In this document: piece by piece, positions 5,000 to 42,797 of the stretch
Numbering within the stretch: position 1 is the stretch's first letter
Layout: each line of letters opens with the position of its first letter
From: a virus
Taxonomy: Duplodnaviria > Caudoviricetes
Virus record (IMG/VR): IMGVR_UViG_3300032295_002835
Span: 1 to 54,513 of that record
Length of the DNA stretch: 54,513 nucleotides
Reading direction: 5' to 3' (one strand)
Translations under genes and position numbers: made by a program
Notes under the pieces: generated by a model
Told to the model about the DNA's origin: nothing
The model's database searches: none
What the model saw: the letters and a program-made list of their open reading frames with translations, nothing else

Positions 5000-5023
5000 A
5001 CAGCCTCCATTTTACAGCAAGTG

Positions 5024-5593
5024 TTAAAATTTGTCAACCACAATCCAGCCATCTTCAGCTACCTGGCATACCACACCCTGATAAGTGTAGATGTCGCGAT
5101 TACGAAATGCACTTTCCAAAAACCATCGGCACTGAGCACCGTTGTGCCAAAATCTGTTGGGGAACTCAGAATGCGGCCTAAACTGATGCAGTCGACCTGT
5201 GGTGCCAACCTGAGTGTTGCGTAGTGTGCCAGCATCAGGTGCATCCGTACATACCAATACCTGTTGCGAAGCCACATGAGCCGGACGCAGTTGATTGCGC
5301 AGACTTTGTTCGGCTCGTTTCATGGCCACAGCACAGGCCTCCTCACGTGGACGATCCCCGGGCCAATCATACTGTCCGGTGGCCCAGTGCCAGGTAGAAT
5401 CAACTCTGGCACGGAAGTTAACAATGCAACGTTGACCACCGTCGGGTGCAGGAACCACTTCACGTCGGATGTTGCTGCGCTCTTGCACCACAACCACAGC
5501 ATCAGTCACAGTACGGTCTTGCATCACACATTCACTGCCAAAGGCCACCAATGGCAACAGCATTAGAGCTGCTGTAAATTTCAATTGCCGCAT
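5024..5593 (-). CDS. secreted Cys-containing hypothetical protein
   Basis: Signal peptide (…VAFG); several Cys; 189 aa. Confidence 0.75.
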   Translation of the reverse strand: MRQLKFTAALMLLPLVAFGSECVMQDRTVTDAVVVVQERSNIRREVVPAPDGGQRCIVNFRARVDSTWHWATGQYDWPGDRPREEACAVAMKRAEQSLRNQLRPAHVASQQVLVCTDAPDAGTLRNTQVGTTGRLHQFRPHSEFPNRFWHNGAQCRWFLESAFRNRDIYTYQGVVCQVAEDGWIVVDKF

Positions 5594-6695: not shown

Positions 6696-6724
6696 AGTAT
6701 ATGCTGCATTGCACAAAATGTCAA
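6696..6724 (-). promoter_or_regulatory. sigma70 promoter TTGACA-N17-TATACT containing a PhaR-like box
   Basis: -35 6719-6724, -10 6696-6701; spacer carries TGCTGCATTGCACA. Confidence 0.65.
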
Positions 6725-11985: not shown

Positions 11986-12014
11986 ATTGTACGCTGTTAT
12001 TGAAATTCTGTCAA
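11986..12014 (-). promoter_or_regulatory. sigma70 promoter TTGACA-N17-TACAAT for uvsE (likely leaderless mRNA)
   Basis: -10 ends 5 nt before the ATG at 11980. Confidence 0.65.
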
Positions 12015-18478: not shown

Positions 18479-20335
18479 TCAAGCTGATTTTACGTCAGCA
18501 TCAATTACAGAATCATCTCCTGATGACTGTGCCGCAGCGGCCTTGGCCTTGTGCAGTGGTTCTAGCTTGGCTGCGAAATCAGTGAAGGCCGTGCGCATTG
18601 CATCCAAATCTTCTGATGCTATGAAAGACTCATATTCATCAATGGCAGCTTCAATATCAGTGCGCTCTTGATCAGTGACACGATTGCCGTGCTCTTTGAG
18701 ATCAGTTCGGGCACTGTGTGCTTGGGCTTCAATTTGGTTGCGAGCTTCAATCAATTCACGCTGCTGGCGATCGCTTTCGGCATTTTCTTCCGCTTCGCGA
18801 ATCATGCGATTGATTTCTTCATCACTCAAACCAGAATTGGCCTTGATGGTGATTTTGTTTTCTTTGCCAGTTTTCTTGTCTACTGCACTGACTTTGAGAA
18901 TACCGTTGGCATCAACATCCAGTGTAACATTGATTTGGGGCATGCCACGTGGTGCTGAATCAATGCCTTCAAGATTGAACTCGCCCAGCAGTTTGTTGTA
19001 CTTGGCTAGTTCACGCTCGCCCTGGTATACCTTGATTGTGACCGCAGGTTGATTGTCTTCCGCGGTGGAGAACACCTGACTGTTTTTGGTGGGAATGGTG
19101 GTGTTCTTTGTGATCAACTTGGTCATAACACCGCCCACGGTTTCAATTCCCAGGCTTAGGGGTGTTACATCCAACAGCAACACATCCTTGCGATCACCTG
19201 CCAACACAGCACCTTGGATGGCAGCGCCCACAGCCACTGCTTCGTCAGGATTGACATCACGACGTGGTGCTTTGCCAAACAGTTTTTCAACTGCTTGTTG
19301 TACTCTAGGCATGCGTGTTTGTCCGCCTACCAAGATAACTTCGTCAATGTCGCTGGCACTGATTCCAGCATCTTTGATGGCCTGACGGCAAGGTTCAAGA
19401 CTGGACTCAATGAGATCTTCCACCATGCTTTCTAGTTTGGCACGTGTGATCTTGATGTTGAGATGTTTGGGTCCGCTGGCATCAGCTGTGATGTAGGGCA
19501 GGTTTACATCGGTCTGAGCACTGTTGGACAGTTCAATCTTGGTACGTTCAGCTGCTTCTTTTAGGCGTTGCAGTGCCATGACATCTTTGCCTAGATCTAC
19601 GCCGCTTTCTTTGCGGAATTCTGCAATGAGATGATCGATGATACGTTGGTCAAAATCTTCACCGCCCAGTGTGGTGTTACCGTTGGTGCTCAAGACTTCA
19701 ATCTGCTTGTCACCGTCAACGTCGGCGATTTCAATAATGCTTACGTCAAATGTGCCACCGCCCAGGTCATACACAGCTACCTTGCGATCACCCTTGGTTT
19801 CTTTGTCCACACCATAGGCCAAGGCCGCTGCTGTGGGTTCGTTGATGATGCGCAATACTTCTAGGCCTGCAATTTGTCCTGCATCCTTGGTGGCCTGACG
19901 TTGACTGTCATTGAAGTAGGCAGGAACTGTGATAACTGCCTGCGTGACTTCATGTCCAAGATAGTCTTCAGCAGTTTTTTTCATTTTACGAAGAACTTCT
20001 GCTGAGATCTGCGGTGGTGCTATGTCGCGATCTTGAGCACGGATCCATGCATCTCCATTGGCGGCCTTGACCACTTCATAGGGCATGGCATGCCGGCCGG
20101 CTTCCTCAAAGCGACGACCAATAAAACGCTTGGCAGCGTAAATGGTATTTTGGGGATTGGTCACAGCCTGTCGTTTGGCTGGTGATCCCACGATGATTTC
20201 ATCAGCGGTATAGGCCACTGTGCTGGGCGTTGTTCGCGCACCTTCTGAATTTTCAATTACTCGGGGAAGTCCGTTTTCGATTACTGCGACGCAGCTATTG
20301 GTGGTACCTAGGTCGATACCTATTACTTTGCTCAT
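18479..20335 (-). CDS. dnaK: Hsp70 chaperone DnaK
   Basis: [45 protein letters not shown]. Confidence 0.97.
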
Positions 20336-20424
20336 GTTTTCTCTCCTCAGTTAAGCAAGATTGGATTGTAGACCCCGGGGGCATCTACAACAGTATTTAT
20401 ACAGCAAAAATCACACAGTGTCAA
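20336..20424 (-). promoter_or_regulatory. dnaK promoter and ROSE-like 5'UTR
   Basis: TTGACA-N17-TATAAA(TA); same hairpin and CTTGCTTAA..AGGAG as hsp20 leader. Confidence 0.65.
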
Positions 20425-20428
20425 GCAT

Positions 20429-20683
20429 TTATCGTGGTTCTATCAATCTAAAATTTTTTAAATAGTGTGTCAAAACATCATTATGGCTCTCAGGCTGCCA
20501 GGTCAAGGCAAAAAAATGATACATTTCTTCGTCGTCAAACGTGATACGCAGAGTGTACTTCACAACTTTTCTACGATACACCACTGCAAAACGTTCACTC
20601 CAGGCAGCTATACGATTGTCTAGTTCTTTGAGAATCAGGCCTGCGGCCTGAGATGATGAGGGCAGAGCAAACTCTATGTACAC
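20429..20683 (-). CDS. hypothetical protein
   Basis: 84-aa ORF, GTG start overlapping clpX stop. Confidence 0.7.
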   Translation of the reverse strand: MYIEFALPSSSQAAGLILKELDNRIAAWSERFAVVYRRKVVKYTLRITFDDEEMYHFFALTWQPESHNDVLTHYLKNFRLIEPR

Positions 20684-21873
20684 TACTGGTTGACAGCCAA
20701 CAATTGATGTGGGTCCTGTACTTGGTCCACATCAATACTCACATGCTTGATGCCTTGCCTACGATATTCTGCCAAGTAAAACATGTGTGGCAGCAATACT
20801 CTTTCCAGTTCGCTGTGTAGACCACGAGCGCCGGTGCGATTTTCTATGGTGCGTTGGGCAATTAGATCCAGTGCTTCGGCGGTGAATTCCAGTTCCACAT
20901 TGTCTCGTTCAAACAGCCAATGGTATTGACTGATGTAACTGTGTTTGACATCCTGTAAGATTTTCACAAGATCATCGCGAGTGAGTTCACTGAGACTGAC
21001 CCAACTGGGGAAGCGGCCTACAAATTCCGGAATCATGCCAAAACGTATGAGGTCTTCGGGCGTGACATCGTCAAGGTATTGTTCAGGATCTTCTGTGACT
21101 TTTGCATTGAATCCAATGCTGGTGCCTTTGATGCGATTTTTTACAATGTTGTCCAGCCCCACAAAAGCACCGCCGGCAATGAACAAGATGTTGGTGGTGT
21201 CAATTTCCACTGTTTCACCTGCAGGGTGCTTGCGACCGCCCGTGGGTGTTATTCTGCAACGTGTGCCTTCAACCAATTTGAGCAAGGCCTGCTGCACACC
21301 TTCGCCTGAAACATCGCGTGTGATACTGGCACTTTCACTGCGTCGACTGATTTTGTCTATCTCATCAATGAACACAATGCCACGTTGGCAACGTTGAACG
21401 TCACTGTCGGCTGCAGCAAACAGTCGAGATATCAGGCTTTCAACATCGTCGCCCACATAGCCTGCTTCGGTGAGACTGGTGGCGTCAGCTATCACAAACG
21501 GCACATCTAGGTATCGGGCCACACTGCGAGCCAACAGTGTTTTGCCTGAACCAGTTGGTCCCAACATCAAGATATTGGTTTTCTCAATTTCTGCTGTGGT
21601 GTCTGTGTTGTTGATGCGTTTGTAGTGATTGACAATGGCCACACTCAAGACCTGTTTGGCTCGTTGCTGACCTATCACGTATTGGTCAAGATTTTGCTTG
21701 ATGGCCATGGGATCAAGTGCAAACTCGGCTGCAGGCGCAACAATTTTATCAACCAGTAGAGTTTGACACAGTTCTACACACTCGTTGCAAATGGCAACTT
21801 CTTCGCCAACAATGAGTTTGGCTACTTCATCTTTGCTTTTACCGCAAAAATTGCATGATGTTGTTTCGGTCAT
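20683..21873 (-). CDS. clpX: ClpX ATP-binding subunit
   Basis: C4 zinc finger, GPTGSGKT, GYVG, IDEIDK, RKH, IGF loop, GARGL. Confidence 0.96.
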   Translation of the reverse strand: MTETTSCNFCGKSKDEVAKLIVGEEVAICNECVELCQTLLVDKIVAPAAEFALDPMAIKQNLDQYVIGQQRAKQVLSVAIVNHYKRINNTDTTAEIEKTNILMLGPTGSGKTLLARSVARYLDVPFVIADATSLTEAGYVGDDVESLISRLFAAADSDVQRCQRGIVFIDEIDKISRRSESASITRDVSGEGVQQALLKLVEGTRCRITPTGGRKHPAGETVEIDTTNILFIAGGAFVGLDNIVKNRIKGTSIGFNAKVTEDPEQYLDDVTPEDLIRFGMIPEFVGRFPSWVSLSELTRDDLVKILQDVKHSYISQYHWLFERDNVELEFTAEALDLIAQRTIENRTGARGLHSELERVLLPHMFYLAEYRRQGIKHVSIDVDQVQDPHQLLAVNQ

Positions 21874-23372
21874 GTTTGATTTTTTTGTTGCAATCTCTCT
21901 GCTACTTGTTCACGTTCCTGCTCGCTCAAAAGCTCAATGTCGTATTCACCGCTGCTGATCTTGTCAATCAAATGATCAATATAGGCAGTGTTATAGGTGT
22001 AGCTGTCACTGATGGTTTTGTCTACCAAGATCCAATCATCACCGTTGTACTTATATAGCCTATTGGGCATAATGTCAACTCTGACATACACGTCGCCCTT
22101 GCGCGGCTCTGGTGGAAAGCTGGTACCAAATCCACTGTTGTTGCCCTCCAAGACTTGATTGTCAGGAACCAGAGCCATCCAAGGCAGCTCTGAGATTTCA
22201 CCACGAGCCAGGCGGCTGCGTTGATTTTTCAAAGTGTCATTGGGATTTTCCTGCTTCCATTGTTGCATTGCAACTTTGATCTGCGGATTGTCTTCATCCT
22301 CGTCTGGTGCTTCTTCGCGAGCAAGACTTTCTTTGTCGTACTTTGACACCAATCTCTCGTCATTGTAGGCTGCTATGTCGCTGTCAAGCGGAACTGTGGG
22401 CGGGGGCTCAGGCGGCTGTGCCACCATGGGTGTGGAATTTTTAAACCAAGACCAGTTTCTAAGATATGGGAAATCTGTGGTAACAGCCACGGCCGGTTCT
22501 GGTACTGATTGTTGAATCTGTTCAATTTGCTCAGGTGTCAGAGCACCATCATCAGGTTCGTACTTTGGCGTATCCTTGTGTTGCAGCGCCGCTTCGGCCA
22601 TGGCCTCAGCATAATCATCACGATGCCATTTAAGACTTTCTGTGGAGGCCAACACCATCATGATTGCCAGGGGATCAAACACCACCACCAACATTATGAT
22701 CACCCAGCGTACCGCTGCTTCCAAGAGATTGGCATCAGGATTGTCGCCGTAGATCAAGGCAGCGATATACTTGATTGGTCCTACTTCGGCTTCAACTTTG
22801 CGTACTTCGGCTGCAATGGGCGCACGTTGTTCGTTGAGATCGCCGATCACACGTTGTTCGGTTTCAATTTCGCGCATGAGTCGCGCACGTTCTTTGGCCT
22901 GCTGACGGCGAATCTGCACAGCACGATCAGCACCTTTTTCGTCGCTGCTGCGACCCATGACCTGATCCACCGCCTCGTCCATTTGCCGGAGTACGCGGCG
23001 ATTGGCTTCGATGTTTTCTTTGGCTGTCTTGATTTTTTCATCGTAGATAGCCAGCTTGGCTAGGACATCACCGCTTACCAGACTTTGATCACTGTGTGCT
23101 TTGCTGAGAAAACCAAAGATACCCATGCTGGTGATTACCATGAGCATGAACACCGCAGGCACTAGATAGATTTTCATGGCCAGACGACAGCGGTGCCAGT
23201 ACTCATGCAACCACACAGTGACCACAACCTTGGCCAGTTCCAAGAAACCGCCCATGATCACAATGGGTATCACAGCCGCGGCGAATATGGCTGCAAGGCC
23301 TAAGATACTGTACCATGCAGCCACCAGACTGAGGCTCAAGGCCACAAACAGAGTTAGATAACTTAGAAACAT
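21870..23372 (-). CDS. membrane-anchored coiled-coil protein
   Basis: N-terminal TM helices, central coiled coil, EAEVGPIKYIA then further TM. Confidence 0.85.
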   Translation of the reverse strand: MFLSYLTLFVALSLSLVAAWYSILGLAAIFAAAVIPIVIMGGFLELAKVVVTVWLHEYWHRCRLAMKIYLVPAVFMLMVITSMGIFGFLSKAHSDQSLVSGDVLAKLAIYDEKIKTAKENIEANRRVLRQMDEAVDQVMGRSSDEKGADRAVQIRRQQAKERARLMREIETEQRVIGDLNEQRAPIAAEVRKVEAEVGPIKYIAALIYGDNPDANLLEAAVRWVIIMLVVVFDPLAIMMVLASTESLKWHRDDYAEAMAEAALQHKDTPKYEPDDGALTPEQIEQIQQSVPEPAVAVTTDFPYLRNWSWFKNSTPMVAQPPEPPPTVPLDSDIAAYNDERLVSKYDKESLAREEAPDEDEDNPQIKVAMQQWKQENPNDTLKNQRSRLARGEISELPWMALVPDNQVLEGNNSGFGTSFPPEPRKGDVYVRVDIMPNRLYKYNGDDWILVDKTISDSYTYNTAYIDHLIDKISSGEYDIELLSEQEREQVAERLQQKNQT

Positions 23373-23376
23373 AAGA

Positions 23377-23679
23377 TTATTTATAGGGTGACATTTTGTG
23401 CACCACGGCGTACTTTACTGCGATCCAGGTGCCAAACTGCTCATCGGGTACTTCAAACCAAACTGTGACCGGTTGGAAGCTCTGTGTCAACTTGCGTTTC
23501 ACATGCTTCTGAGTGCGCCAGTTGCGTCCAAACATTTTTCTTGCTTCTGACATCACAGCATACCAAGTCTTTGTATTCTCAATTTCAAACCAAACCAGAT
23601 GCATCACCTGTGGCGTTTCTCTAAGAAAATCATTTGACTCATGCATGCTCAACGCAGCGGCATCAGTATTGATAGACAT
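23377..23679 (-). CDS. hypothetical protein
   Basis: AAAGGA RBS before ATG 23679. Confidence 0.7.
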   Translation of the reverse strand: MSINTDAAALSMHESNDFLRETPQVMHLVWFEIENTKTWYAVMSEARKMFGRNWRTQKHVKRKLTQSFQPVTVWFEVPDEQFGTWIAVKYAVVHKMSPYK

Positions 23680-23714
23680 CGGTCCTTTCACTGTTTGTTC
23701 CTTAATTGGCATAC

Positions 23715-23860
23715 ACCTCAACCAGTGCTGAGGATTTGACTTTCGTCAAGGACAGTGTTTCATCCTACAGGATTTACGTTCACGTGCCACGGGCACTGCT
23801 GGTCCCAGGTCAAAGCTTTACCAACAGCCCATTGAACCACCCTATCTCACAGGTGATGCT
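23715..23860 (-). ncRNA. candidate structured ncRNA / long 5' leader
   Basis: Multiple stems incl. TTGAC-GAAA-GTCAA, GTGCC/GGCAC, ATCC/GGAT, CCTCAGC/GTTGAGG; begins at expected TSS of a perfect promoter. Confidence 0.55.
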
Positions 23861-23865
23861 GAATG

Positions 23866-23894
23866 ATTATAGTACAGATTGACAGTGATGTCAA
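23866..23894 (-). promoter_or_regulatory. perfect sigma70 promoter TTGACA-N17-TATAAT
   Basis: -35 23889-23894, -10 23866-23871. Confidence 0.85.
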
Positions 23895-23907
23895 GACTTT
23901 TGACAGA

Positions 23908-24336
23908 TTACCACGAGCGCGAAATGTCGGGTGTGTCTGGTGTGGCGTTGGCCAAGCCGGCCACGATTTGAAACTGCTGCCATGCATGAAGCACAGCAGG
24001 ATTGCGTTGCATTTCTACTGGCAGCACTATGGTATCCAACCATGTGTGCCGTGATTTCGTACGATGACCGTACTGTCTGGGTTGATGTAGTCTGCCAGTT
24101 TCGTACAGTTCAATTGCAACACTGCGTACCTGATCTTCGTCACTGTCCTCAAACACCGTCCACTCAGGTGGACTCCAGCCGTTGCGTTCGCGATAGCCCT
24201 GCCACACATTGTGCCACTGCAGGTCATCTCTGGGGTCTAGGTCTGTGCCAGATATCACAATCAAAACATCGTTGATATCCACTGTGCCCTGCACAATATC
24301 ACGAATGCATCTGCTGAAACTCATGCCAATTTTCAT
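23908..24336 (-). CDS. hypothetical phage protein
   Basis: 142-aa ORF, ATGA-coupled. Confidence 0.8.
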   Translation of the reverse strand: MKIGMSFSRCIRDIVQGTVDINDVLIVISGTDLDPRDDLQWHNVWQGYRERNGWSPPEWTVFEDSDEDQVRSVAIELYETGRLHQPRQYGHRTKSRHTWLDTIVLPVEMQRNPAVLHAWQQFQIVAGLANATPDTPDISRSW

Positions 24337-24512
24337 ACAGTTTTGGTCATGTCAAAATGGTCAAGGATGCGCTGTTGCAGTTCAGGATCATCGCACATGG
24401 CCACAACCTGCTCTACCACAGTTTCCCCAAAACGCATCAAGAGATGGCCTCCCACGCCAGGATAATGGCTACCGCCTAATTGTAAAGCAATGTCATACCA
24501 AGGTTGTTTCAT
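24333..24512 (-). CDS. hypothetical protein (59 aa, not in ORF track)
   Basis: MKQPWYDIALQLGGSHYPGVGG...; ATGA overlaps on both sides; GGAG RBS. Confidence 0.7.
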   Translation of the reverse strand: MKQPWYDIALQLGGSHYPGVGGHLLMRFGETVVEQVVAMCDDPELQQRILDHFDMTKTV

Positions 24513-25867
24513 ATTTTTTCTCCTGCCTCAAAACTTCTAAATCTCAAGAATCGCGGGAATCGGAGGCTGTAGCTTCCGTCTTGGTTTTGTGTGACGGCAT
24601 CAGCTTGCACTTCAACCACGTGACCCAATAACTTATCTCGACTGATCCAATACTCATCACGATCAGTATCAGACAAGCCACTCCCAACATTAACTCTAAT
24701 CCTACGTCCATGATCTTCTCCTTCACAAACTATAGCACCTAGGCGGCCCGCATTGCGACCGGTTCCTTCTTCAAAGTCCACAATATTTAGATCAACTGTG
24801 ATTGTGGGTTTCCACTTCATCCAACTGCTGCTGCGTTTGCATTCGTAAGGCGCATTGATATCTTTGATCATGATGCCTTCAAATCCCTGCGCCACGGCAT
24901 CTTGAGCGAACCGTTGCATGATATCACGACCTTCGGCTGAGTCAAGATTGACCTCCAGGCCTGGCATCATGCGCACACAACCATCAGGGCCTAGTGCACC
25001 AATGTGTCGTTCCATGTAGGCCAATCTCTCATGTTGCTTGAGATTGCACTGTCCCTGTTGAAAGTCAGCCAGTGGTATCATGTCAAACACATGAAACACC
25101 ATGTCATCGGTCTTGGCATTGTTTTTGCGATGAGCCTGGCGCATCAAGGTCTGAAAACTCTCGCCCACAATCTCACCATCCAACACACCCATGGTGCCAA
25201 TCTTGTCCAGATTGTCTTCGATAAAACGAGTGATCTGGGGAAAGTTCAAAAATTCTTTGCCGTTGCGACTCATCAAGGTCACACTATAGCCCCGGATCAC
25301 AGCCAACACACGCACACCATCCAGTTTGACTTCCAATCGTTTGGTGCCGCGCATTTTGTCTGGACGGTCAGTGCTGTCTTGTGCCAGCTGACAGGTAAAC
25401 ACCGGTATACGATATTCAGTCTTGCCCAGGATCTTGTTGAGAGTTTTTTCACTGATACCGCAGCGTAGATCCTTGATCAACACACGGCGGCAAATCATGT
25501 TCCACTCATCGCTGTCAAATTCTTGGCTAAGGTCTTCGATGCTTTGGCGAGCGTTGCCTCCGGTCACAGATCTAGTGCGCAGGCTTTCCAGCAGTGCCCA
25601 GAACTTGGGCCAGTCATTGGCAGCATTGACAATGCCTTGAGTCTCAGGCACCTGCTTGATGTGAAACGTATAGTAGGGATTATAGGCTTGATAACAGTTG
25701 TATAGAAAACACTGTGCGGCTGCGCTGCCTAACTTGGAGGCCATGAGAGCCTTTTCAATCACCGACTCTTTGTGCAGGCGACTGTCCGAACTTTCCAAAT
25801 CACGGATCCAATCTGCTGCCAATTTGAGTCCTCGATATCTTGCATCTTCAAAATCTATAGTGTCCAT
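24509..25867 (-). CDS. lig: ATP-dependent DNA ligase
   Basis: KLDGVR (motif I), LDGE, FHVFD, EGIMIK, WMKWK, SLRFPRF. Confidence 0.93.
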   Translation of the reverse strand: MDTIDFEDARYRGLKLAADWIRDLESSDSRLHKESVIEKALMASKLGSAAAQCFLYNCYQAYNPYYTFHIKQVPETQGIVNAANDWPKFWALLESLRTRSVTGGNARQSIEDLSQEFDSDEWNMICRRVLIKDLRCGISEKTLNKILGKTEYRIPVFTCQLAQDSTDRPDKMRGTKRLEVKLDGVRVLAVIRGYSVTLMSRNGKEFLNFPQITRFIEDNLDKIGTMGVLDGEIVGESFQTLMRQAHRKNNAKTDDMVFHVFDMIPLADFQQGQCNLKQHERLAYMERHIGALGPDGCVRMMPGLEVNLDSAEGRDIMQRFAQDAVAQGFEGIMIKDINAPYECKRSSSWMKWKPTITVDLNIVDFEEGTGRNAGRLGAIVCEGEDHGRRIRVNVGSGLSDTDRDEYWISRDKLLGHVVEVQADAVTQNQDGSYSLRFPRFLRFRSFEAGEKI

Positions 25868-27290: not shown

Positions 27291-27319
27291 ATTATAGCAT
27301 CGGTGTGAATTTTGGTCAA
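27291..27319 (-). promoter_or_regulatory. early promoter TTGACC-N17-TATAAT
   Basis: Shares TTGACCAAAATTC with promoters at 361 and 27734. Confidence 0.8.
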
Positions 27320-31126: not shown

Positions 31127-32227
31127 TTATAGATCTGGTAGTGCATCGTAGTCAAGGCTGTCGCTCATGACTCCGATAACATAGTTAGTTGATTCGCTTT
31201 CCTGCAGCGCAGTTTGTTTCTTGTGTGTGTCTACGTGCTTGTTGAACCAAGGAATGGGAGTGGTTCTTGGTGCCGGATTCCAGTACTTGATACCAATTTC
31301 TTTCAAGGCGTTGACTGCCGTATAGTCCACAAAGTCTTTGAGGATGGCCGCATTGAGACCAATCACCGGACCACGAGAAAACAGATAGTCGGCCCAGGCT
31401 TTTTCTTCTTGTATGACATCTGCATAAATGGTCATAACTTCGGCTTCACATGCAATCTTGGCCTGTGCAAATCTTGGATCTTCTTTCACAACCTGATTGA
31501 TGATCCAACCAGTCCTATCACGATGCAAGATTTCATCTTGTAGGATCAAGCTGATGATGTTGCCATTGCCAATAAAGATCTTGTTTTCTACCATGGCCAA
31601 GCTTGTGGCAAAGCTCACCATGAAGCGGAACGCTTCCAGGGCATAGCTGGCGTGTAGGGCTAGGTAAATGGCCTGCACATGATCCTGTTCGTCCACGGAT
31701 TTGCCAACTTCTTTCTGGCAATTGATTTCGTGCAACTTGTCGTAATACTTGCCAACACTTGATGCCATGTCAACAATTTCCTGTGTGTCGTGGATGGTAT
31801 TAAACACTTCCTTGGGCACATTGTAGATGTTGCGAATGATGTGGCTGTAGCTACGACTGTGAATGTTGGTTTCAAAGAATGTCCAATTGTAGACCAAGGC
31901 TTCAAGTTCGGGCAGACTCACAACCGGAGTAAAGATTTGACTTGGGCCTCGACCCTGCAGACTGTCCAGTGCTGTTTGACGCAACAGGTTGCTGGTAAAG
32001 ATATGACGCACAGTTTCCGACGCATCCTTGAAGTCAGCAGAGTCTTTGGTGAGATTGATTTCCTCAGGCACCCAAAAGAATCCACGAGCTTCCTGTTCAA
32101 ACTTCACTATCTTGTTGTATTTGACTTCTTCAAATCGTTGGATGGTTACAGGACCGGCCGGATCCAAAAACATCTTGCGGCTGAGATAATCGGTACGATT
32201 GCGTAGGTTGTATTGTGCTTGACTCAT
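31127..32227 (-). CDS. nrdB: ribonucleotide reductase class Ia beta subunit
   Basis: FFWVPEE, LDSLQGR, ETNIHSRSY, LEAFRF, DEILH, QESESTNY. Confidence 0.95.
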   Translation of the reverse strand: MSQAQYNLRNRTDYLSRKMFLDPAGPVTIQRFEEVKYNKIVKFEQEARGFFWVPEEINLTKDSADFKDASETVRHIFTSNLLRQTALDSLQGRGPSQIFTPVVSLPELEALVYNWTFFETNIHSRSYSHIIRNIYNVPKEVFNTIHDTQEIVDMASSVGKYYDKLHEINCQKEVGKSVDEQDHVQAIYLALHASYALEAFRFMVSFATSLAMVENKIFIGNGNIISLILQDEILHRDRTGWIINQVVKEDPRFAQAKIACEAEVMTIYADVIQEEKAWADYLFSRGPVIGLNAAILKDFVDYTAVNALKEIGIKYWNPAPRTTPIPWFNKHVDTHKKQTALQESESTNYVIGVMSDSLDYDALPDL

Positions 32228-32235
32228 GATATTTT

Positions 32236-33279
32236 TTAATTGTAATTGTACAGCAAACCGCCATCAGTTGTGCGGTGAGTTATTCCGATTGTGGCATGTG
32301 GGCGCACTGCCATTACAGCACACACAGCCGGTCCCCAGTGTCCTAGATCCAGTGTGAGTCGATGTTTACCTTGTGCCATGCCCATTCTGGGAACCAGTAA
32401 CACAGTTTGTTGTCTAAACTGTTGAGTATCCAATTCCAAACACAAACTGTCGGCGTTCCAGTCTATGGGCTGAACCCTGGTACCATCTGCGTCCTGAGTA
32501 GTCACAGTTCCTGCCACAGCATCCAGACGATAACTGGCCACTACTGGAGCAGACTCATGAGTGAGTCTTTGCCAAGGAATGTATCCCCATGCAGTTTCCA
32601 CACCGGTGCCCAGTCGATGTATGCCTGGTGCTAGACTGTCAAAGTCAGGGCGGTGATCAAATGCCAAGTCTGCTATCAATTTTTGAAAATCGTGATCAAT
32701 GTCAACTCCAGGATAGAAACTGGTGTGTTCTTGATTGCCTGTCACAGACTGATAAGCAAAACTGTCACACACTGGCATAGCATGAATCTCCATCCAGTAC
32801 ACACTGGGCAGGAATTGTGCACCAGGTTCGCGTGGCAAACTGTGCCACAGCGATTCACCCCAGAGATTTCCATTCACAGTTTCAGAAAACAAAACACGAC
32901 CAGGTTCGCTGGCTTGATGTTGATAAGTGGTATTTCTTAACTCAATTTTGTCCTGGAGTTTGAGAGTTTCAATGATGTACTGACCCAGTTGATAACGGTC
33001 AGCATTGTTTTCATAGGCCACAACATGCCTAGCTCCATGCTTCAAAGCCAGCATGGTCAACGAACCAGTTCCAAATCCAATGTCAATGCAGTTTCTGTCA
33101 CGCACATGTTCAGCCATGACACAATCATAAAACTGATTGCGCACATGATCATTGATCATTGGCCACGAAACACCATCATGATGCTGCCAATTTATATGTG
33201 TGAACAGTGTTTTGGGATGTTGATAGCCTAGAGGTTTGTCCATGCTGTCAAGATGTTGACCTGTTGTCACAGCTTGCAT
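32236..33279 (-). CDS. class I SAM-dependent methyltransferase (PRMT-like)
   Basis: MINDHVRN..Y, IDIGFGTG, GARHVVAYE, FSE...GE; start may be 33243. Confidence 0.75.
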   Translation of the reverse strand: MQAVTTGQHLDSMDKPLGYQHPKTLFTHINWQHHDGVSWPMINDHVRNQFYDCVMAEHVRDRNCIDIGFGTGSLTMLALKHGARHVVAYENNADRYQLGQYIIETLKLQDKIELRNTTYQHQASEPGRVLFSETVNGNLWGESLWHSLPREPGAQFLPSVYWMEIHAMPVCDSFAYQSVTGNQEHTSFYPGVDIDHDFQKLIADLAFDHRPDFDSLAPGIHRLGTGVETAWGYIPWQRLTHESAPVVASYRLDAVAGTVTTQDADGTRVQPIDWNADSLCLELDTQQFRQQTVLLVPRMGMAQGKHRLTLDLGHWGPAVCAVMAVRPHATIGITHRTTDGGLLYNYN

Positions 33280-35582
33280 GCCTCACAATCTTCGTCCAAC
33301 ATGGGTTCCAACGCCAAGGGTGTTTCCTGGGTGTCTACCTGTTTCACGCCCTGTTTGTTGATCAGGCTGTAGTAAAAAGTTTTTAATCCCCAACGATGTG
33401 CCTGCATGAGATTGGCAGCAATCAATGTGGTTGGAACTTTACGCTCCGGAAAATGTGCTGGATTGTAAAACGTGTTGGTGCTGATGCTTTGGTCCACATA
33501 GGCTGCCAACACCGCTGCGGTCTTGATATAACCTATGCAGTCAGTCTGTTCCCACATCAACTGATAACGATTACGCAGTCGCTGATATTCAGGAACCACT
33601 TGTGTGAATGATCCGGCCTTGCTTTCTTTCACTGTGATCAAGCTCATGGGCATTTCAATGCCATTGGTTGAATTGATCACCACTGAACTGGATTCCACAG
33701 GTGCAATGGCCATCAAGGTAGCATTGCGTACACCATGTTGTTTCATGTTGGCACGCAGAGTTTCCCAGTCCAGTTCTGGCACAAAGTCTGTGAGTTCATT
33801 CACGGCCTGCGCTCTACGCTCCCAGGGAAACACGCCACGACCATACCAGGTGTGATCACTGTCTCGGCAGCGTCCACGTTCCTTGGCCAGTTCCACTGTG
33901 GCTTCGGTGAGGTAGAAGGCCTGATGTTCCATCCAGGTCTTGACCTCGGCCAGGGCGTCGGCTTCACCGTAGTCTAGATCACGCTTGGCATGCCAGTAGG
34001 CCAAGTTTGTGACGCCAATGCCTAGTGGCTGGATTTCCTCGTTGCTGAGTTGGCTTTGAATTGATAGGAAATCTTGATAGTCCAGTATGTTGCATAGACT
34101 GCGTTGTAAAATTCTACAGGCACGGCGCATGTCTTCAGGATTGCGGAATGCACCCCAGTTGATACTGCCCAGAGTGCAGAGAGCAATACGCCCTTCAGCA
34201 TCGTCTAGACGCCGGAAAGGACGTGTGGGCAACAGAATTTCGCAGCAGAGATTGCTTTGATAGATTGTGTGATATTCAGGATCAAACGGACCTTGATTGA
34301 TCACGTTGTCAATGAACACTAAGTAGATGCGTCCGGTGTCGGTGCGTTCTTTGAGAATGCCTGACTTGAATACTTCTTCTGCGCTCATGACTTTCTTGCG
34401 TAGGTCACGACGTCGTTCGTACTTTACGTAAAGTTCCTCGAATAGCGCAGTGTCTTTATAGAAGGCTTCATATAGGTCAGGAACTTCGTTGGGGTCGAAG
34501 AACGTAATGTTCTCCTTGTTCTTAAAGCGACGCCAGAAGAATGCAGATAACACGACACCATAATCCATGTGTCGTACCCGGGTCTCTTCGGTGCCTTGGT
34601 TGTTTTTGAGAACAATGAGGTCATCAAACTGATGATGCCATATGGGATAGAAAACCGTAGCCGAAGCATTTCTTATTCCTCCTTGACTGCAACTGCGCAG
34701 GTCACCAAACCACTTCTTCAAGAATGGAATCATGCCTGTGTGCATGATTTCGCCACCTCTGATGGGACTGCCTAATGGACGTAGTCTTCCAATCTCTAAA
34801 CCAATGCCGGCACGTTTGCTGGCATACTTGGCCATCATTTCACCGCTAGCGAATATACTATCCAGGTCATCATCAGACCTAATAAGAACGCAAGAACTAA
34901 ATTGTTTAGTCGGAGTGCCAAGACCAGCAAGCACAGGAGTAGCAAGAGTGAAAAGCCCATCACTAGCAGCATTATAATATTCCTTGATGTACTTCATGCG
35001 AGCCGTGTTTGGCTCTTCGCGGTGAAACACTGTGGCAGCGGCAATCATGTAGCGTACCTGGGGTGTTTCAAATATTTCCTTGGTGCTGCGATTGCGCACA
35101 AGATATTTTTCAATCAGCTGTTCAATGGCAGCATAGCTGTACTGCTCGTCGCGCGAATGATCAATGATGTCATTCATGCGGTTCCAGTCTTCTTCGCTGT
35201 ACCACTCCAGGAGCTCGGGTGTATAAAGACCAACCTCCACATTTCGCTGTACAATGGCGTAGAGGTGAGGAGGTTGATATGAACCATAAACGTCCTTTCT
35301 CAACATGGAAAGACGCTGTTTGCCAGCCACGTGTTGATAATTGACATGTCCAACTTCAGGATTGGCTTCCACATCAATCAAGTCAACAATGGCCCGCAAC
35401 GTGATGCCATCAATTTCGCGAGTGCTGATGCCATCATAAAAATGCATTTGAGCCTTGATTTCGATCATGCTCTGACTTACGTCTGATGTGCCTTGACACA
35501 CCTTGGCAATTTGATTTTGCCATTTTTCTAGTGACAATGGCTCGCGGGCACCATTGCGTTTGACAACACTGATAGTTTTCAT
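33267..35582 (-). CDS. nrdA: ribonucleotide reductase class Ia alpha subunit
   Basis: ATP cone VVKRNG, ATPV, FSSC, SNLCCEI, KTFYY, C-terminal CEAC. Confidence 0.97.
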   Translation of the reverse strand: MKTISVVKRNGAREPLSLEKWQNQIAKVCQGTSDVSQSMIEIKAQMHFYDGISTREIDGITLRAIVDLIDVEANPEVGHVNYQHVAGKQRLSMLRKDVYGSYQPPHLYAIVQRNVEVGLYTPELLEWYSEEDWNRMNDIIDHSRDEQYSYAAIEQLIEKYLVRNRSTKEIFETPQVRYMIAAATVFHREEPNTARMKYIKEYYNAASDGLFTLATPVLAGLGTPTKQFSSCVLIRSDDDLDSIFASGEMMAKYASKRAGIGLEIGRLRPLGSPIRGGEIMHTGMIPFLKKWFGDLRSCSQGGIRNASATVFYPIWHHQFDDLIVLKNNQGTEETRVRHMDYGVVLSAFFWRRFKNKENITFFDPNEVPDLYEAFYKDTALFEELYVKYERRRDLRKKVMSAEEVFKSGILKERTDTGRIYLVFIDNVINQGPFDPEYHTIYQSNLCCEILLPTRPFRRLDDAEGRIALCTLGSINWGAFRNPEDMRRACRILQRSLCNILDYQDFLSIQSQLSNEEIQPLGIGVTNLAYWHAKRDLDYGEADALAEVKTWMEHQAFYLTEATVELAKERGRCRDSDHTWYGRGVFPWERRAQAVNELTDFVPELDWETLRANMKQHGVRNATLMAIAPVESSSVVINSTNGIEMPMSLITVKESKAGSFTQVVPEYQRLRNRYQLMWEQTDCIGYIKTAAVLAAYVDQSISTNTFYNPAHFPERKVPTTLIAANLMQAHRWGLKTFYYSLINKQGVKQVDTQETPLALEPMLDEDCEACKL

Positions 35583-39014: not shown

Positions 39015-39337
39015 ACTCTAAAGCTTTCTCCGCAGCCGCAACGGTCGCGTTCGTTTGGATTGACAAACTCAAACCCTTCGTTGAGTCCTTGTCTCTTGTA
39101 GTCCATGGTCAAGCCGTCAACATAGGGATGATCTTTACCGTTGACATATATTGTAACACCGTGACTGTCATAAGTGATCCAGTCTCGTGTCACAGGAGGA
39201 TTGTCAACGTATTCCAACTTGTAGGCCAGGCCCGAACAGCCTGTGGTGCGCACACCAATCATGATTCCCACGCCTTTGCCGCGTCGCTCCAGCTGTTGTT
39301 GCACTCGTCGAGCTGCTGTTTCTGTTATTGATATCAT
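39011..39337 (-). CDS. iscA: Fe-S cluster carrier IscA
   Basis: TTGCSGLAY and CGCGESF. Confidence 0.95.
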   Translation of the reverse strand: MISITETAARRVQQQLERRGKGVGIMIGVRTTGCSGLAYKLEYVDNPPVTRDWITYDSHGVTIYVNGKDHPYVDGLTMDYKRQGLNEGFEFVNPNERDRCGCGESFRV

Positions 39338-41085
39338 GTGTTTTCCGTGATCTGTGGTCTAGGTAAAGCTAGGATTCTCGCAGTGTTTTCCAATCTTGGT
39401 CTAGGGTCTGACAGACTGGTACTGTGTTGTTTCATGTACGCCATGAATTTTTTGTAATCGGTTCGGAGATCACGAGCAGAGTTCATCAGCATGCGTAGTA
39501 TAACAGGATGTACTGACCAGGCCAAATCAAAATGAGCAAAGTAGCATGCAGTTAGTTTGCCTTCAGGTGCTGCATGCCCATACAAATCAATTCGGTAATA
39601 AAAACATTTGTTCTCAGTCCAATTTGAGTATAGATCAGCACAGAGTCTTTGAAATGGCTCACTGGTGATAACCTGCTGCATGAGATGTTCGCTGTCAACG
39701 TCACAGCCTATTTCCCAACGAGCTCGACTCAGTGCATGCCAAAACGCCGTAAGCACGGTCATGGCCACCATTTCTTCTTGTGTGAAACTGTAGCAGCTTT
39801 CAGCAAAAGCACTGGTCTGCCAGGCATGCCCGTTCCATCTCAATGCCGTGCTGTGTTTCATGTTGAATCGAGTGGCATAGTCAGGGTCAAGAGCAGCCGG
39901 ACTCATGGGCAACAGTTCATTCACACTGATCAACAGCACACAGCGTTGATTCATGGTTTCAATCAAGGTACGTTGCCATGACCCAAAGCTCTGACCAGGC
40001 AGTCCCACAATCATGTTTATTGAACATGGCACGTCAGGATAATCATGTTGCAGCTCCTGTATCATTTGTCGGTGAACTTGCCAACTCACATCAGGCCGAT
40101 CTATGTTGATCAGCACCTGTGGATCAAGATCCTGCACACTGAAGGCAAACCCTACGTAGGCATGGGCCATTTTTCCACGACCCATGACATGATGCAATTT
40201 CTGCACATTGTTCTTGCGCAGTTTGCTGTAAGTGGCAGTTATTTCAAAACCAGCCCTGCGTTCAAGATTGACGTCGGCAAGGTACTCAAATATTTCAATA
40301 TCTTCGTCATACTGACCAAAATTGGCGTCAGTGATAAAGATCTGTTGAACACCCAGTTGATAGAACAATTCAATTTCGTCACGGAAAGTGCCTTTGCGTC
40401 TGCTGACTTTTCTGTCTAGCCCGTTGTTCCAGTCACAAAAGGTGCAGCTATAGGGGCAACCACGAGTCAATTGCCAGGGCATGATCACTGATATTCCCCG
40501 AGACTGTTGCTGTTCAACCATGTCCCGCAGCAAGTCTTCACAGTGCAAATAAGGACTGGCCTTGGGCTCAGGCACCACTCGATAGTCGGCCACCAGCACA
40601 CGATGTTGATCCGGATCACGCCAGGCCACATTGCTGGTATTGAATCTTATGAGTTTTTTGTGTGTGATCAAGGATTCAATGACGTCACTGAAGGCTTGTT
40701 CACCTGCACCGTATACAGCATAGTCTATCCAGGGTCTCTGATCCAACCAGTCTCGCTCGCTGTGGACACTGACACTGGGGCCGCCTGCAATCACTGTGAT
40801 AGATTCTGGCAATTGATCACGCACACGGCTCATCTGTTGCGCAAAATAAATTTCGTTCCAGACAAAAAGACTGATGCACAACACATCAACCTTGTTGTCG
40901 TGACAAAAATCAATCAGCTCTTGATCTGTGAGACTGCCTTGCACAGGAATTTCCCAGTGCAACTGTGCAGCAATTTCTGGCTTGTGAGTGTCTATGTAGT
41001 GTTTGAGATACAATGCCGATGTGGCCACGTGCATTTGATTGCCGTTGCCCACAAACTGTTTGTGATAAAATGCAATGTTTAGCAT
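39334..41085 (-). CDS. B12-binding-type radical SAM protein (paralogue 2)
   Basis: SLFVWN, AGGPS, GAGE, TRGCPYSCTFCDW, DANFG, GLPGQ. Confidence 0.88.
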   Translation of the reverse strand: MLNIAFYHKQFVGNGNQMHVATSALYLKHYIDTHKPEIAAQLHWEIPVQGSLTDQELIDFCHDNKVDVLCISLFVWNEIYFAQQMSRVRDQLPESITVIAGGPSVSVHSERDWLDQRPWIDYAVYGAGEQAFSDVIESLITHKKLIRFNTSNVAWRDPDQHRVLVADYRVVPEPKASPYLHCEDLLRDMVEQQQSRGISVIMPWQLTRGCPYSCTFCDWNNGLDRKVSRRKGTFRDEIELFYQLGVQQIFITDANFGQYDEDIEIFEYLADVNLERRAGFEITATYSKLRKNNVQKLHHVMGRGKMAHAYVGFAFSVQDLDPQVLINIDRPDVSWQVHRQMIQELQHDYPDVPCSINMIVGLPGQSFGSWQRTLIETMNQRCVLLISVNELLPMSPAALDPDYATRFNMKHSTALRWNGHAWQTSAFAESCYSFTQEEMVAMTVLTAFWHALSRARWEIGCDVDSEHLMQQVITSEPFQRLCADLYSNWTENKCFYYRIDLYGHAAPEGKLTACYFAHFDLAWSVHPVILRMLMNSARDLRTDYKKFMAYMKQHSTSLSDPRPRLENTARILALPRPQITENT

Positions 41086-42797
41086 GCTAGAGCGTGATCT
41101 TGGGAAGTTGCTGAACCACTTATTGCGTTGTCTTTGCAATATTTATAGAGTATGGGCCAATGCTTTTTTAGGTCAACCACGTGAGATATAATCATACGCA
41201 TTACATTGGGATTGTAATACCAACGGTGAAAGGCATCGTCGAATCTACAGGCTGTCATCACGTCGTTTTTGACTGCAATGCCACCGTAGGCCTTTCTAAA
41301 CCAAAATTGATTGTTGTTGCGCCAATTGTCCAAAAGATCCTCACACATGTCATGGTACGACTGGCTGTGTTGAAATTCCTTCACCAAGCTATCAATGTCT
41401 ATCTTTATGCCCAAATCAAATTGAAGAGTTCCCACCGAGACCATTAGATGTGACAGCATGGTCATTTCCACCATGTCTTTGGCATCAAAACTGGCACATG
41501 ATTCAGGGAACTTGTTGCAGTAGTAATATTCCCCGCTGAATCTCTGAGACTCGCTGTATTTCATTTTGAATCTTGCATAGGCTGGATCTAGATTTGCAGG
41601 AGACATGGTGAGAAACTCATTGATGTAAACATACATTTGCGCACCAGTCTTGGTAACTTCAATCAGAGTTTGCTGCCAGGACGCCAAAGTTTGTCCTGGC
41701 AATCCTTGTATCAACTGCACCATCACAGGCAAATGTGGAAATTCTGCCTGTAATTGATCAATCATGTGTTTGTGTGATTCCCATGTAACGTCGGGTCTGT
41801 CAATGTTATCTAGAACTTCAGGGTGTATGTCTTGCACGGCAAGAACAAATCCTCGACCTTCCAATAGGTTGGCTCGTGCAGCTATGGTCAGTAGTTCCAG
41901 GTTTACTTCCTTTTTTATCTTGCTTAGATTGAAATTCAATACAAATCCTGCATTGTGTTCTAGATTTTTGAGAGCAAAATACTTGAACATTTCAATATCT
42001 TCAGGATACTGACCGGTATTGGCATCGGCAATGTCTATTTTTTTGACTCCCAGTTGATAAAAAAGATCAATTTCATCCTGATAGGTTCCGCGTCTGCGTG
42101 TGGTCTTGTTGCTGGGTCCATTGTTCCAGTCGCAGAATGTGCATTTATAAGGGCATCCGCGGGTGACCTGATAAGGCAATTCAACTTCATATCCTCGTTG
42201 CTGTTCTTGTTGCACCATGGCTGTCAAAAGATCCTGACAGTGCAGATATGGACTCACCTTGGGTTCAGGCACATAACGAAAGTCAGCTGTGACTGATTGA
42301 TTTTGTTCGCCACGGCGCCAGGCAACATTGCTGGTGTTGAATCGTATGAGTGGTTGTTGATTGATAATGCTTTCTGCAATGTCTGCAAAAGCCACTTCGC
42401 CAGCGCCGTATACTGCATAATCTATCCAGGGATGTTTTTGTAAAAAATCTGGATCTGAATGAGGTATCACGTGGCCACCACCGGCCACCACACGAGTTTG
42501 CGGTGGCAAACGATGTCTGATCCTCAGCAGCTGACCACTAATATAGTCATAGCTCCAGTGGAACAGACTGAGTCCTAAAATGTCGATCTCGTTATCCCAA
42601 CAGTAGTCAATCAGCTCTTGATCTGTCATGGCATGCTGTAGGGGCAGATGCCAGTTCAGCTGTGACGCTACCTCAGGTCTAGTTAGATCAACATAAGTTT
42701 TGAGGTATAGAGTAGCGACACTTACATATAACTGCGTTGATTGAATCTGATCCTGTTTTGGAATAAAATTGCAGTGATACAAAACAACATTCAACAT
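41079..42797 (-). CDS. B12-binding-type radical SAM protein (paralogue 1)
   Basis: SLFHWS, AGGGH, GAGE, TRGCPYKCTFCDW, DANTG, GLPGQ. Confidence 0.88.
   Translation of the reverse strand: MLNVVLYHCNFIPKQDQIQSTQLYVSVATLYLKTYVDLTRPEVASQLNWHLPLQHAMTDQELIDYCWDNEIDILGLSLFHWSYDYISGQLLRIRHRLPPQTRVVAGGGHVIPHSDPDFLQKHPWIDYAVYGAGEVAFADIAESIINQQPLIRFNTSNVAWRRGEQNQSVTADFRYVPEPKVSPYLHCQDLLTAMVQQEQQRGYEVELPYQVTRGCPYKCTFCDWNNGPSNKTTRRRGTYQDEIDLFYQLGVKKIDIADANTGQYPEDIEMFKYFALKNLEHNAGFVLNFNLSKIKKEVNLELLTIAARANLLEGRGFVLAVQDIHPEVLDNIDRPDVTWESHKHMIDQLQAEFPHLPVMVQLIQGLPGQTLASWQQTLIEVTKTGAQMYVYINEFLTMSPANLDPAYARFKMKYSESQRFSGEYYYCNKFPESCASFDAKDMVEMTMLSHLMVSVGTLQFDLGIKIDIDSLVKEFQHSQSYHDMCEDLLDNWRNNNQFWFRKAYGGIAVKNDVMTACRFDDAFHRWYYNPNVMRMIISHVVDLKKHWPILYKYCKDNAISGSATSQDHALAC

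Follow-up and report, generated by a model that had tools for sequence, protein, structure and literature searches.

The question raised by this locus is what is made from a short intergenic stretch of the 54,513-base IMG/VR record IMGVR_UViG_3300032295_002835, the whole of which is referred to here as the window, where an exact consensus promoter stands about 180 nucleotides (nt) ahead of a small gene. The window (CheckV completeness 16%) is a fragment of an uncultured jumbo phage, because its near-complete relatives have genomes of 320-350 kb. An earlier note on this DNA had proposed a perfect sigma70 promoter driving a highly structured noncoding RNA of about 145 nt, possibly an abundant novel RNA, ribozyme or switch. 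The noncoding stretch is genuine, being bounded by the stop codon of the upstream gene at 23908 and by a conserved AUG at 23679 behind GAAAGGA. It does not give rise to a free-standing RNA ending at 23715, as had been supposed, but to a longer 5' leader: the RNA runs on to about 23680, its last helix strand abuts the Shine-Dalgarno sequence, and no terminator-like site was found on the minus strand between hairpin P7 and the AUG. Judged by its sequence and that of its relatives, the element is a new, lineage-specific, pseudoknotted 5' leader of about 175 nt, linked to a single gene and to the site where its translation starts.

The promoter is exactly as the earlier note had described it and lies on the minus strand, where it matches TTGACA-N17-TATAAT at 12 of 12 positions (23894-23866). 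Its -35 and -10 hexamers fall within the 16-18 nt separation of a sigma-70 promoter, upstream of the transcription unit, and the -35 hexamer starts 13 nt after the stop codon of the upstream gene. Eight sites with at most one mismatch to the same pattern occur in the window, all on the minus strand, when 0.28 would be expected and the maximum among 100 shuffles was two; the leader promoter is the only one of the eight without a mismatch. Judged by this excess, the phage appears to rely on the host sigma-70 polymerase, which points to a host of proteobacterial type. The seven one-mismatch sites (333-361, 5009-5037, 6696-6724, 11986-12014, 20396-20424, 22050-22078 and 27291-27319) all lie on the coding strand. 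Across 59 distinct relatives, the promoter hexamers match at 12 of 12 positions in 39, at 11 in nine and at fewer in 11; the spacer is 17 nt in 48, and a conserved GCAU sits 6 nt past the -10 hexamer in 44. The G of this GCAU is the predicted transcription start and position 1 of our RNA numbering, which runs along the minus strand from 23859. From there the untranslated leader would extend about 180 nt to the AUG, in agreement with the distance that had been estimated.

The leader is conserved in a single gene context. A scan of a viral collection with the 500-amino acid (aa) protein encoded downstream returned 593 related stretches, the best 80 of which were kept as loci for the conservation counts. 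A search with nhmmer, which the earlier note had suggested running on viral metagenomes, found matches to the 226-nt region in 69 of the 80 loci (54 distinct sequences), always just upstream of the small gene. A plain MAFFT alignment with RNAalifold gave a poor consensus of 12 pairs in which variable helices were misaligned, so we used instead hand-set helices and a covariance model (R1) built from two sequences, the window and its closest relative, L002; the model recovers the same 69 loci plus the window, with one match each. Four of the 11 loci missed by nhmmer (L053, L063, L065 and L070) hold a divergent but clearly homologous version, and the arrangement of promoter, RNA and a gene for a protein of about 105 aa is found in 73 of the 80. 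Of the remaining missed loci, L062 is cut off upstream, L082 and L045 are without promoter and RNA, and the others have a different gene order. Exactly one copy of the RNA is present in each of four of the five large records (81-99% complete). A strict two-block DNA pattern located 52 further or overlapping viral contigs, every one confirmed by R1; the ~105-aa gene follows directly in 50, and the other two contigs end 49 and 22 nt after the RNA. A second viral pattern scan, for the divergent group, gave 15 matches, of which six are real and nine are chance matches in G+C-rich DNA.

Searches beyond this phage lineage returned little. A pattern scan of one genome per prokaryotic species gave five matches, only one of which (L090) is real by R1; L088 and L091 were set aside as they look like chance matches in coding DNA. 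The L090 copy (3580-3809) lies on a 39-kb contig of a metagenome-assembled genome labeled Haliscomenobacter, probably a phage contig binned with a bacterium and at best a weak hint of the host. The cultured distant relatives XacN1 (Xanthomonas), RAS14 (Stenotrophomonas) and RsoM2USA (Ralstonia) share part of the 500-aa protein and are without the RNA (best score 10 bits); the neighboring open reading frame (ORF) of about 104 aa in RsoM2USA has no detectable kinship to the ~105-aa family. A blastn search of GenBank phages with 23300-24400 gave no match.

That the conserved feature is an RNA fold is indicated by compensatory change. We used an alignment derived from R1 (A5; 57 distinct rows, including two junk matches), which was fitted to nested helices, and for that reason recounted the long-range helices on a structure-blind MAFFT alignment of 59 distinct sequences (A7). 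For the whole structure, 86.6% of the cells in A5 are paired, against 35-40% when partners are slid, and the observed values were not attained in any of 500 shuffles; two-sided changes occur in 40 of the 52 pairs. The long-range helices on A7 are 90.4% paired, against 29-35% with slid partners, and 13 of their 19 pairs change on both sides. Helices P3, P4, P6 and P7 covary strongly. Two-sided changes are seen in all five pairs of P3 (96.2% paired on A5 and 84.9% on A7), all eight pairs of the P4 upper stem (94.9-96.7% paired on A5 for P4), all three pairs of the P6 core (93.1% on A5) and six of the seven pairs of P7, and single-sequence folds agree for P4 and P6. P5 has an invariant or almost invariant CC/GG core with poor pairs on either side. 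Among the helices that the earlier note had drawn, covariation bears out GCUGUUGGU/ACCAGCAG (P4), UUGAC-GAAA-GUCAA (P6) and CCUCAGC/GUUGAGG (P7), while AUCACC/GGUGGU (P2) and AUCC/GGAU (P5) are weak and a GUGCC/GGCAC hairpin is not conserved among relatives. The junctions hold highly conserved unpaired nucleotides (CCGUGGC, UAAAU, UAGG-UGAGAC, CAAAAC and GNGUA). The P7 loop (RNA 134-139, 23726-23721) reads CUGGUAC or CUGAUAC in most relatives and, by eye, is complementary to ACCAG or AUCAG at the 5' end in some sequences and not in others; a tertiary contact between this loop and the 5' end is possible.

The fold is a true pseudoknot. In PK-beta, the partner of CACUGUCC(UU) is a stretch of the tail whose end lies right at the Shine-Dalgarno sequence, and this pairing recurs among relatives as CACUGU/ACAGUG, CACUGA/UCAGUG, CACCGU/ACGGUG, CACCU/AGGUG, CACCAG/CUGGUG and CCUGA/UCAG. 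In its AAGG part, the two best (inner) pairs on A5 are composed of UA (19), AU (10), CG (8) and UG (7), and of UA (16), AU (12), GU (7), UG (5) and CG (4). This covariation is no artifact of fitting, because the PK-beta columns are absent from the structure of R1. The earlier note was right to suspect a pseudoknot but not in its choice of partner: CACUG pairs with CAGUG at 23693-23689, beyond the end that had been given to the RNA. The pairing of ACCAGCAGUG with the downstream CACUG, on which the suspicion had been based, is not conserved in relatives, and ACCAGCAGUG is the 3' strand of P4.

A second, weaker pseudoknot, P-alpha, is tentative. It is a pseudoknot because it crosses P3, and pairing of GGCA with UGCC appears to fit the data better than a terminal closing helix. 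Its GGC/GCC pairs are invariant; the fourth pair is AU in 44, UA in nine and other in two sequences on A5, and AU in 44, UA in five and other in six on A7. Where the 3' strand reads GUAAGCC, the internal GGCA has become GGCU in nine of ten sequences on A5 (five as aligned on A7); the fourth pair is broken in five other sequences, and the flips may reflect one or two events. The terminal closing helix P1 (GCAU with AUGC at 148-151) was rejected: it shows no covariation at all, and 10 of 57 sequences break it (A3:U, GUAAGCC).

The 3' end of the RNA domain coincides with a translation start. PK-beta and the GAAAGGA ribosome-binding site share one base, the last to be paired in the former and the first of the latter, so that the paired ACAGUG is directly followed by AAAGGA and then, 5-9 nt on, by AUG. 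In all groups, a start codon, either that of the gene or that of a short upstream ORF, lies 4-9 nt after the end of GUGAAAG. The in-frame TTG at 23721 and ATG at 23712 were rejected as gene starts: in L002 (85% protein identity) they are followed by stops, and the L002 ORF begins at the homolog of ATG 23679, behind GAAAGGA. In two divergent groups (L044, L031, L025, L052 and L060; L053, L063, L065 and L070) the main ORF starts 25-45 nt later. The short upstream ORF of these groups, which begins 4-9 nt after GAAAG, is a recognizable remnant of the usual N terminus; the later AUG of the main ORF has no obvious Shine-Dalgarno sequence and is preceded by GACCUCUUU. The arrangement suggests translational coupling of the two ORFs, and the placement of the upstream ORF implies that the 3' end of the RNA domain is always at a translation start.

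The leader itself is not coding. Open frames alone do not exclude coding, because 33 of the 59 sequences have a stop-free frame in at least one of the six, mostly antisense; the window has a 58-aa ORF antisense to the leader (23706-23882, plus strand). The decisive evidence is that the gaps between the window and L002 (88% identical) are of 1, 2, 2 and 1 nt, which keeps no frame, that the RNA region varies from 145 to 215 nt among relatives, and that substitutions compensate between distant strands. No reading frame is conserved across the relatives, which speaks against the conserved small ORF that the earlier note named as an alternative.

Table 1. Features of the leader and of the genes around it; positions are those of the window, and RNA positions count from the predicted transcription start
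Feature	Window position	RNA position	Strand	Remarks
-35 hexamer TTGACA	23889..23894		minus	Exact match
-10 hexamer TATAAT	23866..23871		minus	Exact match, 17-nt spacer
Predicted transcription start	23859	1	minus	G of conserved GCAU(G/C); inferred from promoter geometry and conserved GCA
P2 hairpin, tentative	23838..23855	5-9/18-22	minus	66.7% of cells paired on A5; loop RGGAGAU in most relatives
P3 long-range helix GUUCA/UGAAC	23778..23837	23-27/78-82	minus	Encloses P4 and the P-alpha 5' strand
P4 long hairpin	23789..23832	28-40/57-71	minus	Base AUGG/CCGU, then variable stem of 7-8 base pairs
P4 apical loop	23804..23819		minus	AAAGCUUU at 23819-23812; CCUGGG at 23809-23804, palindromic only with G.U
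P-alpha 5' strand GGCA, tentative	23785..23788	72-75	minus	Pseudoknotted with P3
P5 small hairpin AUCC-UGUA-GGAU, tentative	23762..23773	87-98	minus	76.6% of cells paired on A5
PK-beta 5' strand CACUGUCCUU	23748..23757	103-112	minus	Between P5 and P6; covaries with the tail
P6 hairpin UUGAC-GAAA-GUCAA	23736..23749	111-124	minus	Loops mostly GNRA or UUCG
P7 hairpin CCUCAGC-ACUG-GUUGAGG	23716..23733	127-144	minus	84.1% paired on A5
P-alpha 3' strand UGCC, tentative	23708..23711	149-152	minus	Within conserved GUAUGCC
PK-beta 3' strand	23689..23703	157-160 and 166-171	minus	AAGG (23703-23700), A-rich bulge, ACAGUG (23694-23689)
GAAAGGA, conserved RNA 3' end and Shine-Dalgarno sequence	23683..23689		minus	GUGAAAG kept in all groups
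ATP-dependent DNA ligase	24509-25867		minus	
Two small ORFs between ligase and promoter			minus	Second stops at 23908
First operon gene, 100-aa ORF	23377-23679		minus	About 105 aa in relatives; virus-only family
500-aa protein	21870-23372		minus	Hydrophobic N terminus (membrane protein)
ClpX-like ATPase	20683-21873		minus	With ClpX zinc finger
84-aa ORF			minus	Between the ClpX-like ATPase and Hsp70/DnaK genes
Hsp70/DnaK homolog	18479-20335		minus	Full-length, E 1e-249

The apical loop of P4 has a further property. In the fold of the window, AAAGCUUU sits in a 16-nt loop, and self-complementary words recur at this place among relatives. We counted perfect palindromes of at least 6 nt in the apical 24 nt of 48 distinct segments, with 300 dinucleotide shuffles for comparison: at least one is present in 39 of the 48 apices (shuffle mean 15.7, maximum 26) and at least two in 23 (shuffle mean 2.2, maximum 7). 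A control stretch of equal length from the same RNAs has palindromes in 5 of 43, and each of four further distinct apices from a later scan has two. There are 29 different palindromes, with, for example, AGAUCU, AUCGAU, UAGCUA, GUCGAC and UGAUCA in the first place and CCUAGG, CCCGGG, ACCGGU and CUCGAG in the second. When symmetry is kept while the sequence changes, a helix between two copies of the RNA is expected, since a contiguous hexamer cannot pair with itself internally; the palindromes suggest RNA-RNA dimerization. The dimerization initiation site of HIV-1 is a self-complementary hexamer in an apical kissing loop. The leader shares with it, and with kissing-loop dimers in general, apical self-complementary words of at least 6 nt that are exposed in the loop and drift in sequence with their symmetry kept, and differs in having two palindromes per loop. 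The bacterial and phage RNAs GOLLD, ROOL and OLE are reported to form RNA-only complexes (10.1101/2024.12.08.627333); the leader differs from GOLLD and ROOL as part of an mRNA and in being far smaller.

The genes around the leader are all on the minus strand. Neither Pfam (scanned with all 38 aligned members) nor PHROGs has a family for the ~105-aa product of the first gene, and in the ESM Atlas this protein falls only into virus-only clusters of hypothetical proteins. AlphaFold predicts a ferredoxin-like beta-alpha-beta-beta-alpha-beta fold (pLDDT 79.1); Foldseek against the PDB gave no match at E <=0.001 (best E 0.046), and a wide VIA-align search gave generic ferredoxin-like matches with Z <=7.3. 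The strands hold invariant aromatic W/F residues, and the basic helix VKRKL is conserved. Directly downstream of the genes putatively controlled by the leader is a proteostasis module of Hsp70 and the ClpX-like ATPase (18479-21873). The DnaK/Hsp70 gene has a promoter-like TTGACA-N17-TATAAA of its own (20424-20396, minus strand), and its short leader (20336-20424, minus strand) places a GUAGA...UCUAC hairpin ahead of a GAGGAG ribosome-binding site. Elsewhere in the window, 39334-42797 and 31127-35582 encode two adjacent B12-binding radical-SAM proteins and the large and small subunits of a class I ribonucleotide reductase. A pattern scan gave no relative of the 142-aa upstream protein. The idea of a replication origin was dropped, as the GC skew has no turn near 23.8 kb.

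The earlier note could name no family for this RNA and held that it is not a tRNA, and we agree on both counts. Rfam 15 at gathering thresholds has no match in the whole window, and at E up to 10 the stretch 23620-23960 gives three rows at chance level (11-15 bits, against thresholds of 39-45). ARAGORN found no tRNA or tmRNA genes in the window; the GGUUCAAUGG stretch is a strand of the covarying helix P3. The proposal of a novel RNA holds in that the element is conserved and structured, belongs to no Rfam family, and shows compensatory changes and a true pseudoknot; what has to be given up is its independence of the downstream gene. In the literature on jumbo-phage leaders and viral structured RNAs we found no description of this RNA. 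A large IMG/VR mining study (PMC10690425) presents 8,495 unnamed candidate structured RNAs of 29-151 nt. As described there, these DNAVirus_X candidates resemble the leader in coming from IMG/VR intergenic regions, in having covariation evidence and, for some, in lying directly upstream of genes; they are shorter than its ~175 nt, and part of the leader may be among them. A paper on moraphages (PMC12619734) concerns another lineage, with Bacteroidota hosts.

The closest functional parallels are leaders through which a protein doses its own synthesis. The product of T4 gene 32, gp32, autoregulates through a 5' pseudoknot, according to a passage in PMC10690425. The T4 leader is likewise a phage 5' leader with a pseudoknot upstream of the ribosome-binding site of an early gene, and it works by letting the encoded protein meter the translation of a strong transcript. 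The jumbo-phage leader has about four times the size of the T4 one, adds at least four helices and may have two pseudoknots. Its pseudoknot directly adjoins the Shine-Dalgarno sequence with no unstructured tract between them, whereas in T4 gene 32 such a tract presumably separates the two. The downstream protein is not gp32-like, and the likeness to gene 32 is functional only. In the rpsO leader of Escherichia coli, the operator is a pseudoknot, and the regulator, S15, acts on the fold beside an accessible Shine-Dalgarno sequence. With rpsO and other ribosomal-protein leaders, the phage leader shares a pseudoknot next to an accessible Shine-Dalgarno sequence, one locus per genome and one cognate gene; it has no relation to rpsO in sequence or family (nothing in Rfam), its gene is a phage gene, and the likeness in mechanism is one of analogy.

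We propose that the element is a cis-acting translational leader and most likely a protein-bound feedback operator, a reading to which we give about an even chance of being right. In this model, host RNA polymerase would transcribe the leader intensively in early infection, and the folded leader would influence in cis how translation of the first gene begins. By way of coupling, its action would extend to the operon, which comprises the 105-aa protein, the 500-aa membrane protein and the ClpX-like ATPase. The pseudoknotted core would be bound by a protein, for which the small, basic, ferredoxin/RRM-like product of the first gene is the most plausible candidate; binding would stabilize a fold in which the 30S subunit is held or blocked at the neighboring Shine-Dalgarno sequence. 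The unit would thereby pair a maximal promoter with a controlled dose of protein, in the manner of the T4 gene 32 and E. coli rpsO leaders. Feedback is favored because the leader has one locus and one gene context, because a maximal promoter needs dosing after transcription, because the pseudoknot lies by a free Shine-Dalgarno sequence and because the product is small, basic and ferredoxin/RRM-like.

Several points weigh against this proposal. Protein binding is pure inference, the predicted fold of the ~105-aa protein has generic matches, and no RNA-binding family matches it in Pfam or PHROGs. The start, abundance and integrity of the leader transcript are likewise unproven predictions. No conserved pairing that hides the Shine-Dalgarno sequence was found; UCCUU could pair with it in the window, but relatives such as L055 and L016 have not kept this complementarity. 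The leader is dispensable for the ~105-aa gene, because L082 (a 345-kb record) and L045 keep that gene inside an operon, directly upstream of the 500-aa gene, with neither promoter nor leader. The earlier note's description of the region as highly structured does not hold thermodynamically: the minimum free energy of the window sequence is -49.6 kcal/mol, with a z-score of only -1.06, and 25 of 200 shuffles fold as well. The operator model is least successful with the invariant junctions and the palindromic P4 loop, which exceed the needs of a simple operator.

These last features invite a more ornate reading, which we consider unlikely but worth stating. The double-pseudoknotted domain might pair with itself through the two palindromic kissing sites of P4 and so sense its own concentration or build a scaffold, gating a proteostasis operon of small protein, membrane protein and ClpX; or the same core might be the aptamer of a riboswitch not yet known or a new ribozyme.

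A related and quite unlikely alternative is that the transcript carries an RNA with a function of its own, which dimerizes or multimerizes, serves as a decoy for a host factor or is a new self-cleaving ribozyme. It would account for the P4 palindromes, whose frequency, variety and absence from most control stretches were given above, for the abundance implied by a consensus promoter, and for the ending of the domain at the same GUGAAAG even in the groups with a late main ORF. Set against it are the lack of a 3' end signal, the fusion of the tail to the Shine-Dalgarno sequence and a start codon in every group, and the absence of a match to any known ribozyme family in Rfam; the dimerization it relies on is read from symmetry of the sequence only.

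It is also conceivable, if improbable, that the leader is a small-molecule riboswitch in which the double-pseudoknot core is the aptamer and a ligand fixes PK-beta beside the Shine-Dalgarno sequence and so sets translation. Like any riboswitch, the leader is a conserved, structured domain of the 5' untranslated region, with covarying helices and highly conserved unpaired junction nucleotides. In the preQ1-II and SAM-II riboswitches, as in the leader, the 3' strand of a pseudoknot lies at the ribosome-binding site behind a conserved core; there the Shine-Dalgarno sequence itself is paired, whereas the helix of the leader stops one base before it. Against a riboswitch speak the single gene context (50 of 50 testable loci) and the one copy per genome, the downstream genes, which give no hint of a metabolite or ligand, the failure to find a conserved anti-Shine-Dalgarno alternative, and the lack of an Rfam riboswitch match even at E up to 10. 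Translational riboswitches with a pseudoknot near the Shine-Dalgarno sequence are treated in PMC11625349 and PMC3303485.

Improbable too, in our view, is a purely constitutive leader, a compact 5' domain that protects an early mRNA from decay, offers a standby site at the Shine-Dalgarno sequence, or both, with no effector. The Shine-Dalgarno sequence appears always to be free, the structure starts a few bases from the predicted 5' end, the perfect promoter implies a need for high output, and the gene can do without the leader when it is internal to the operon. For protection, however, a single 5' hairpin would suffice, and the two pseudoknots, the invariant junctions and the covarying palindromic loops point to a particular three-dimensional fold as the object of selection.

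That there is no RNA element at all, and that a small conserved ORF or DNA operator sites for dimeric proteins explain the region, can be set aside as highly improbable: stop-free frames, the antisense 58-aa ORF and six-base palindromes typical of protein-binding sites would fit it, but the frame-breaking gaps, the variable lengths and compensatory substitutions across helices up to 60 nt apart do not, and a DNA-binding protein would have to track each change of palindromes that differ even among close relatives.

The covariation data provide a ready model for mutational, structural and cryo-EM work on this RNA. If the leader is a protein-bound operator, a protein family seen only in viruses would gain a first function, RNA binding and feedback. 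Ligand binding or self-cleavage would make the leader a new class of riboswitch or ribozyme, and dimerization through its palindromic loops would make it a small and tractable case of RNA-RNA assembly in a bacterial virus. The operon that it heads holds a ClpX-like unfoldase, next to a phage DnaK, and the strictly conserved consensus promoter together with the intricate leader marks this as one of the most tightly engineered early transcription units of the phage.

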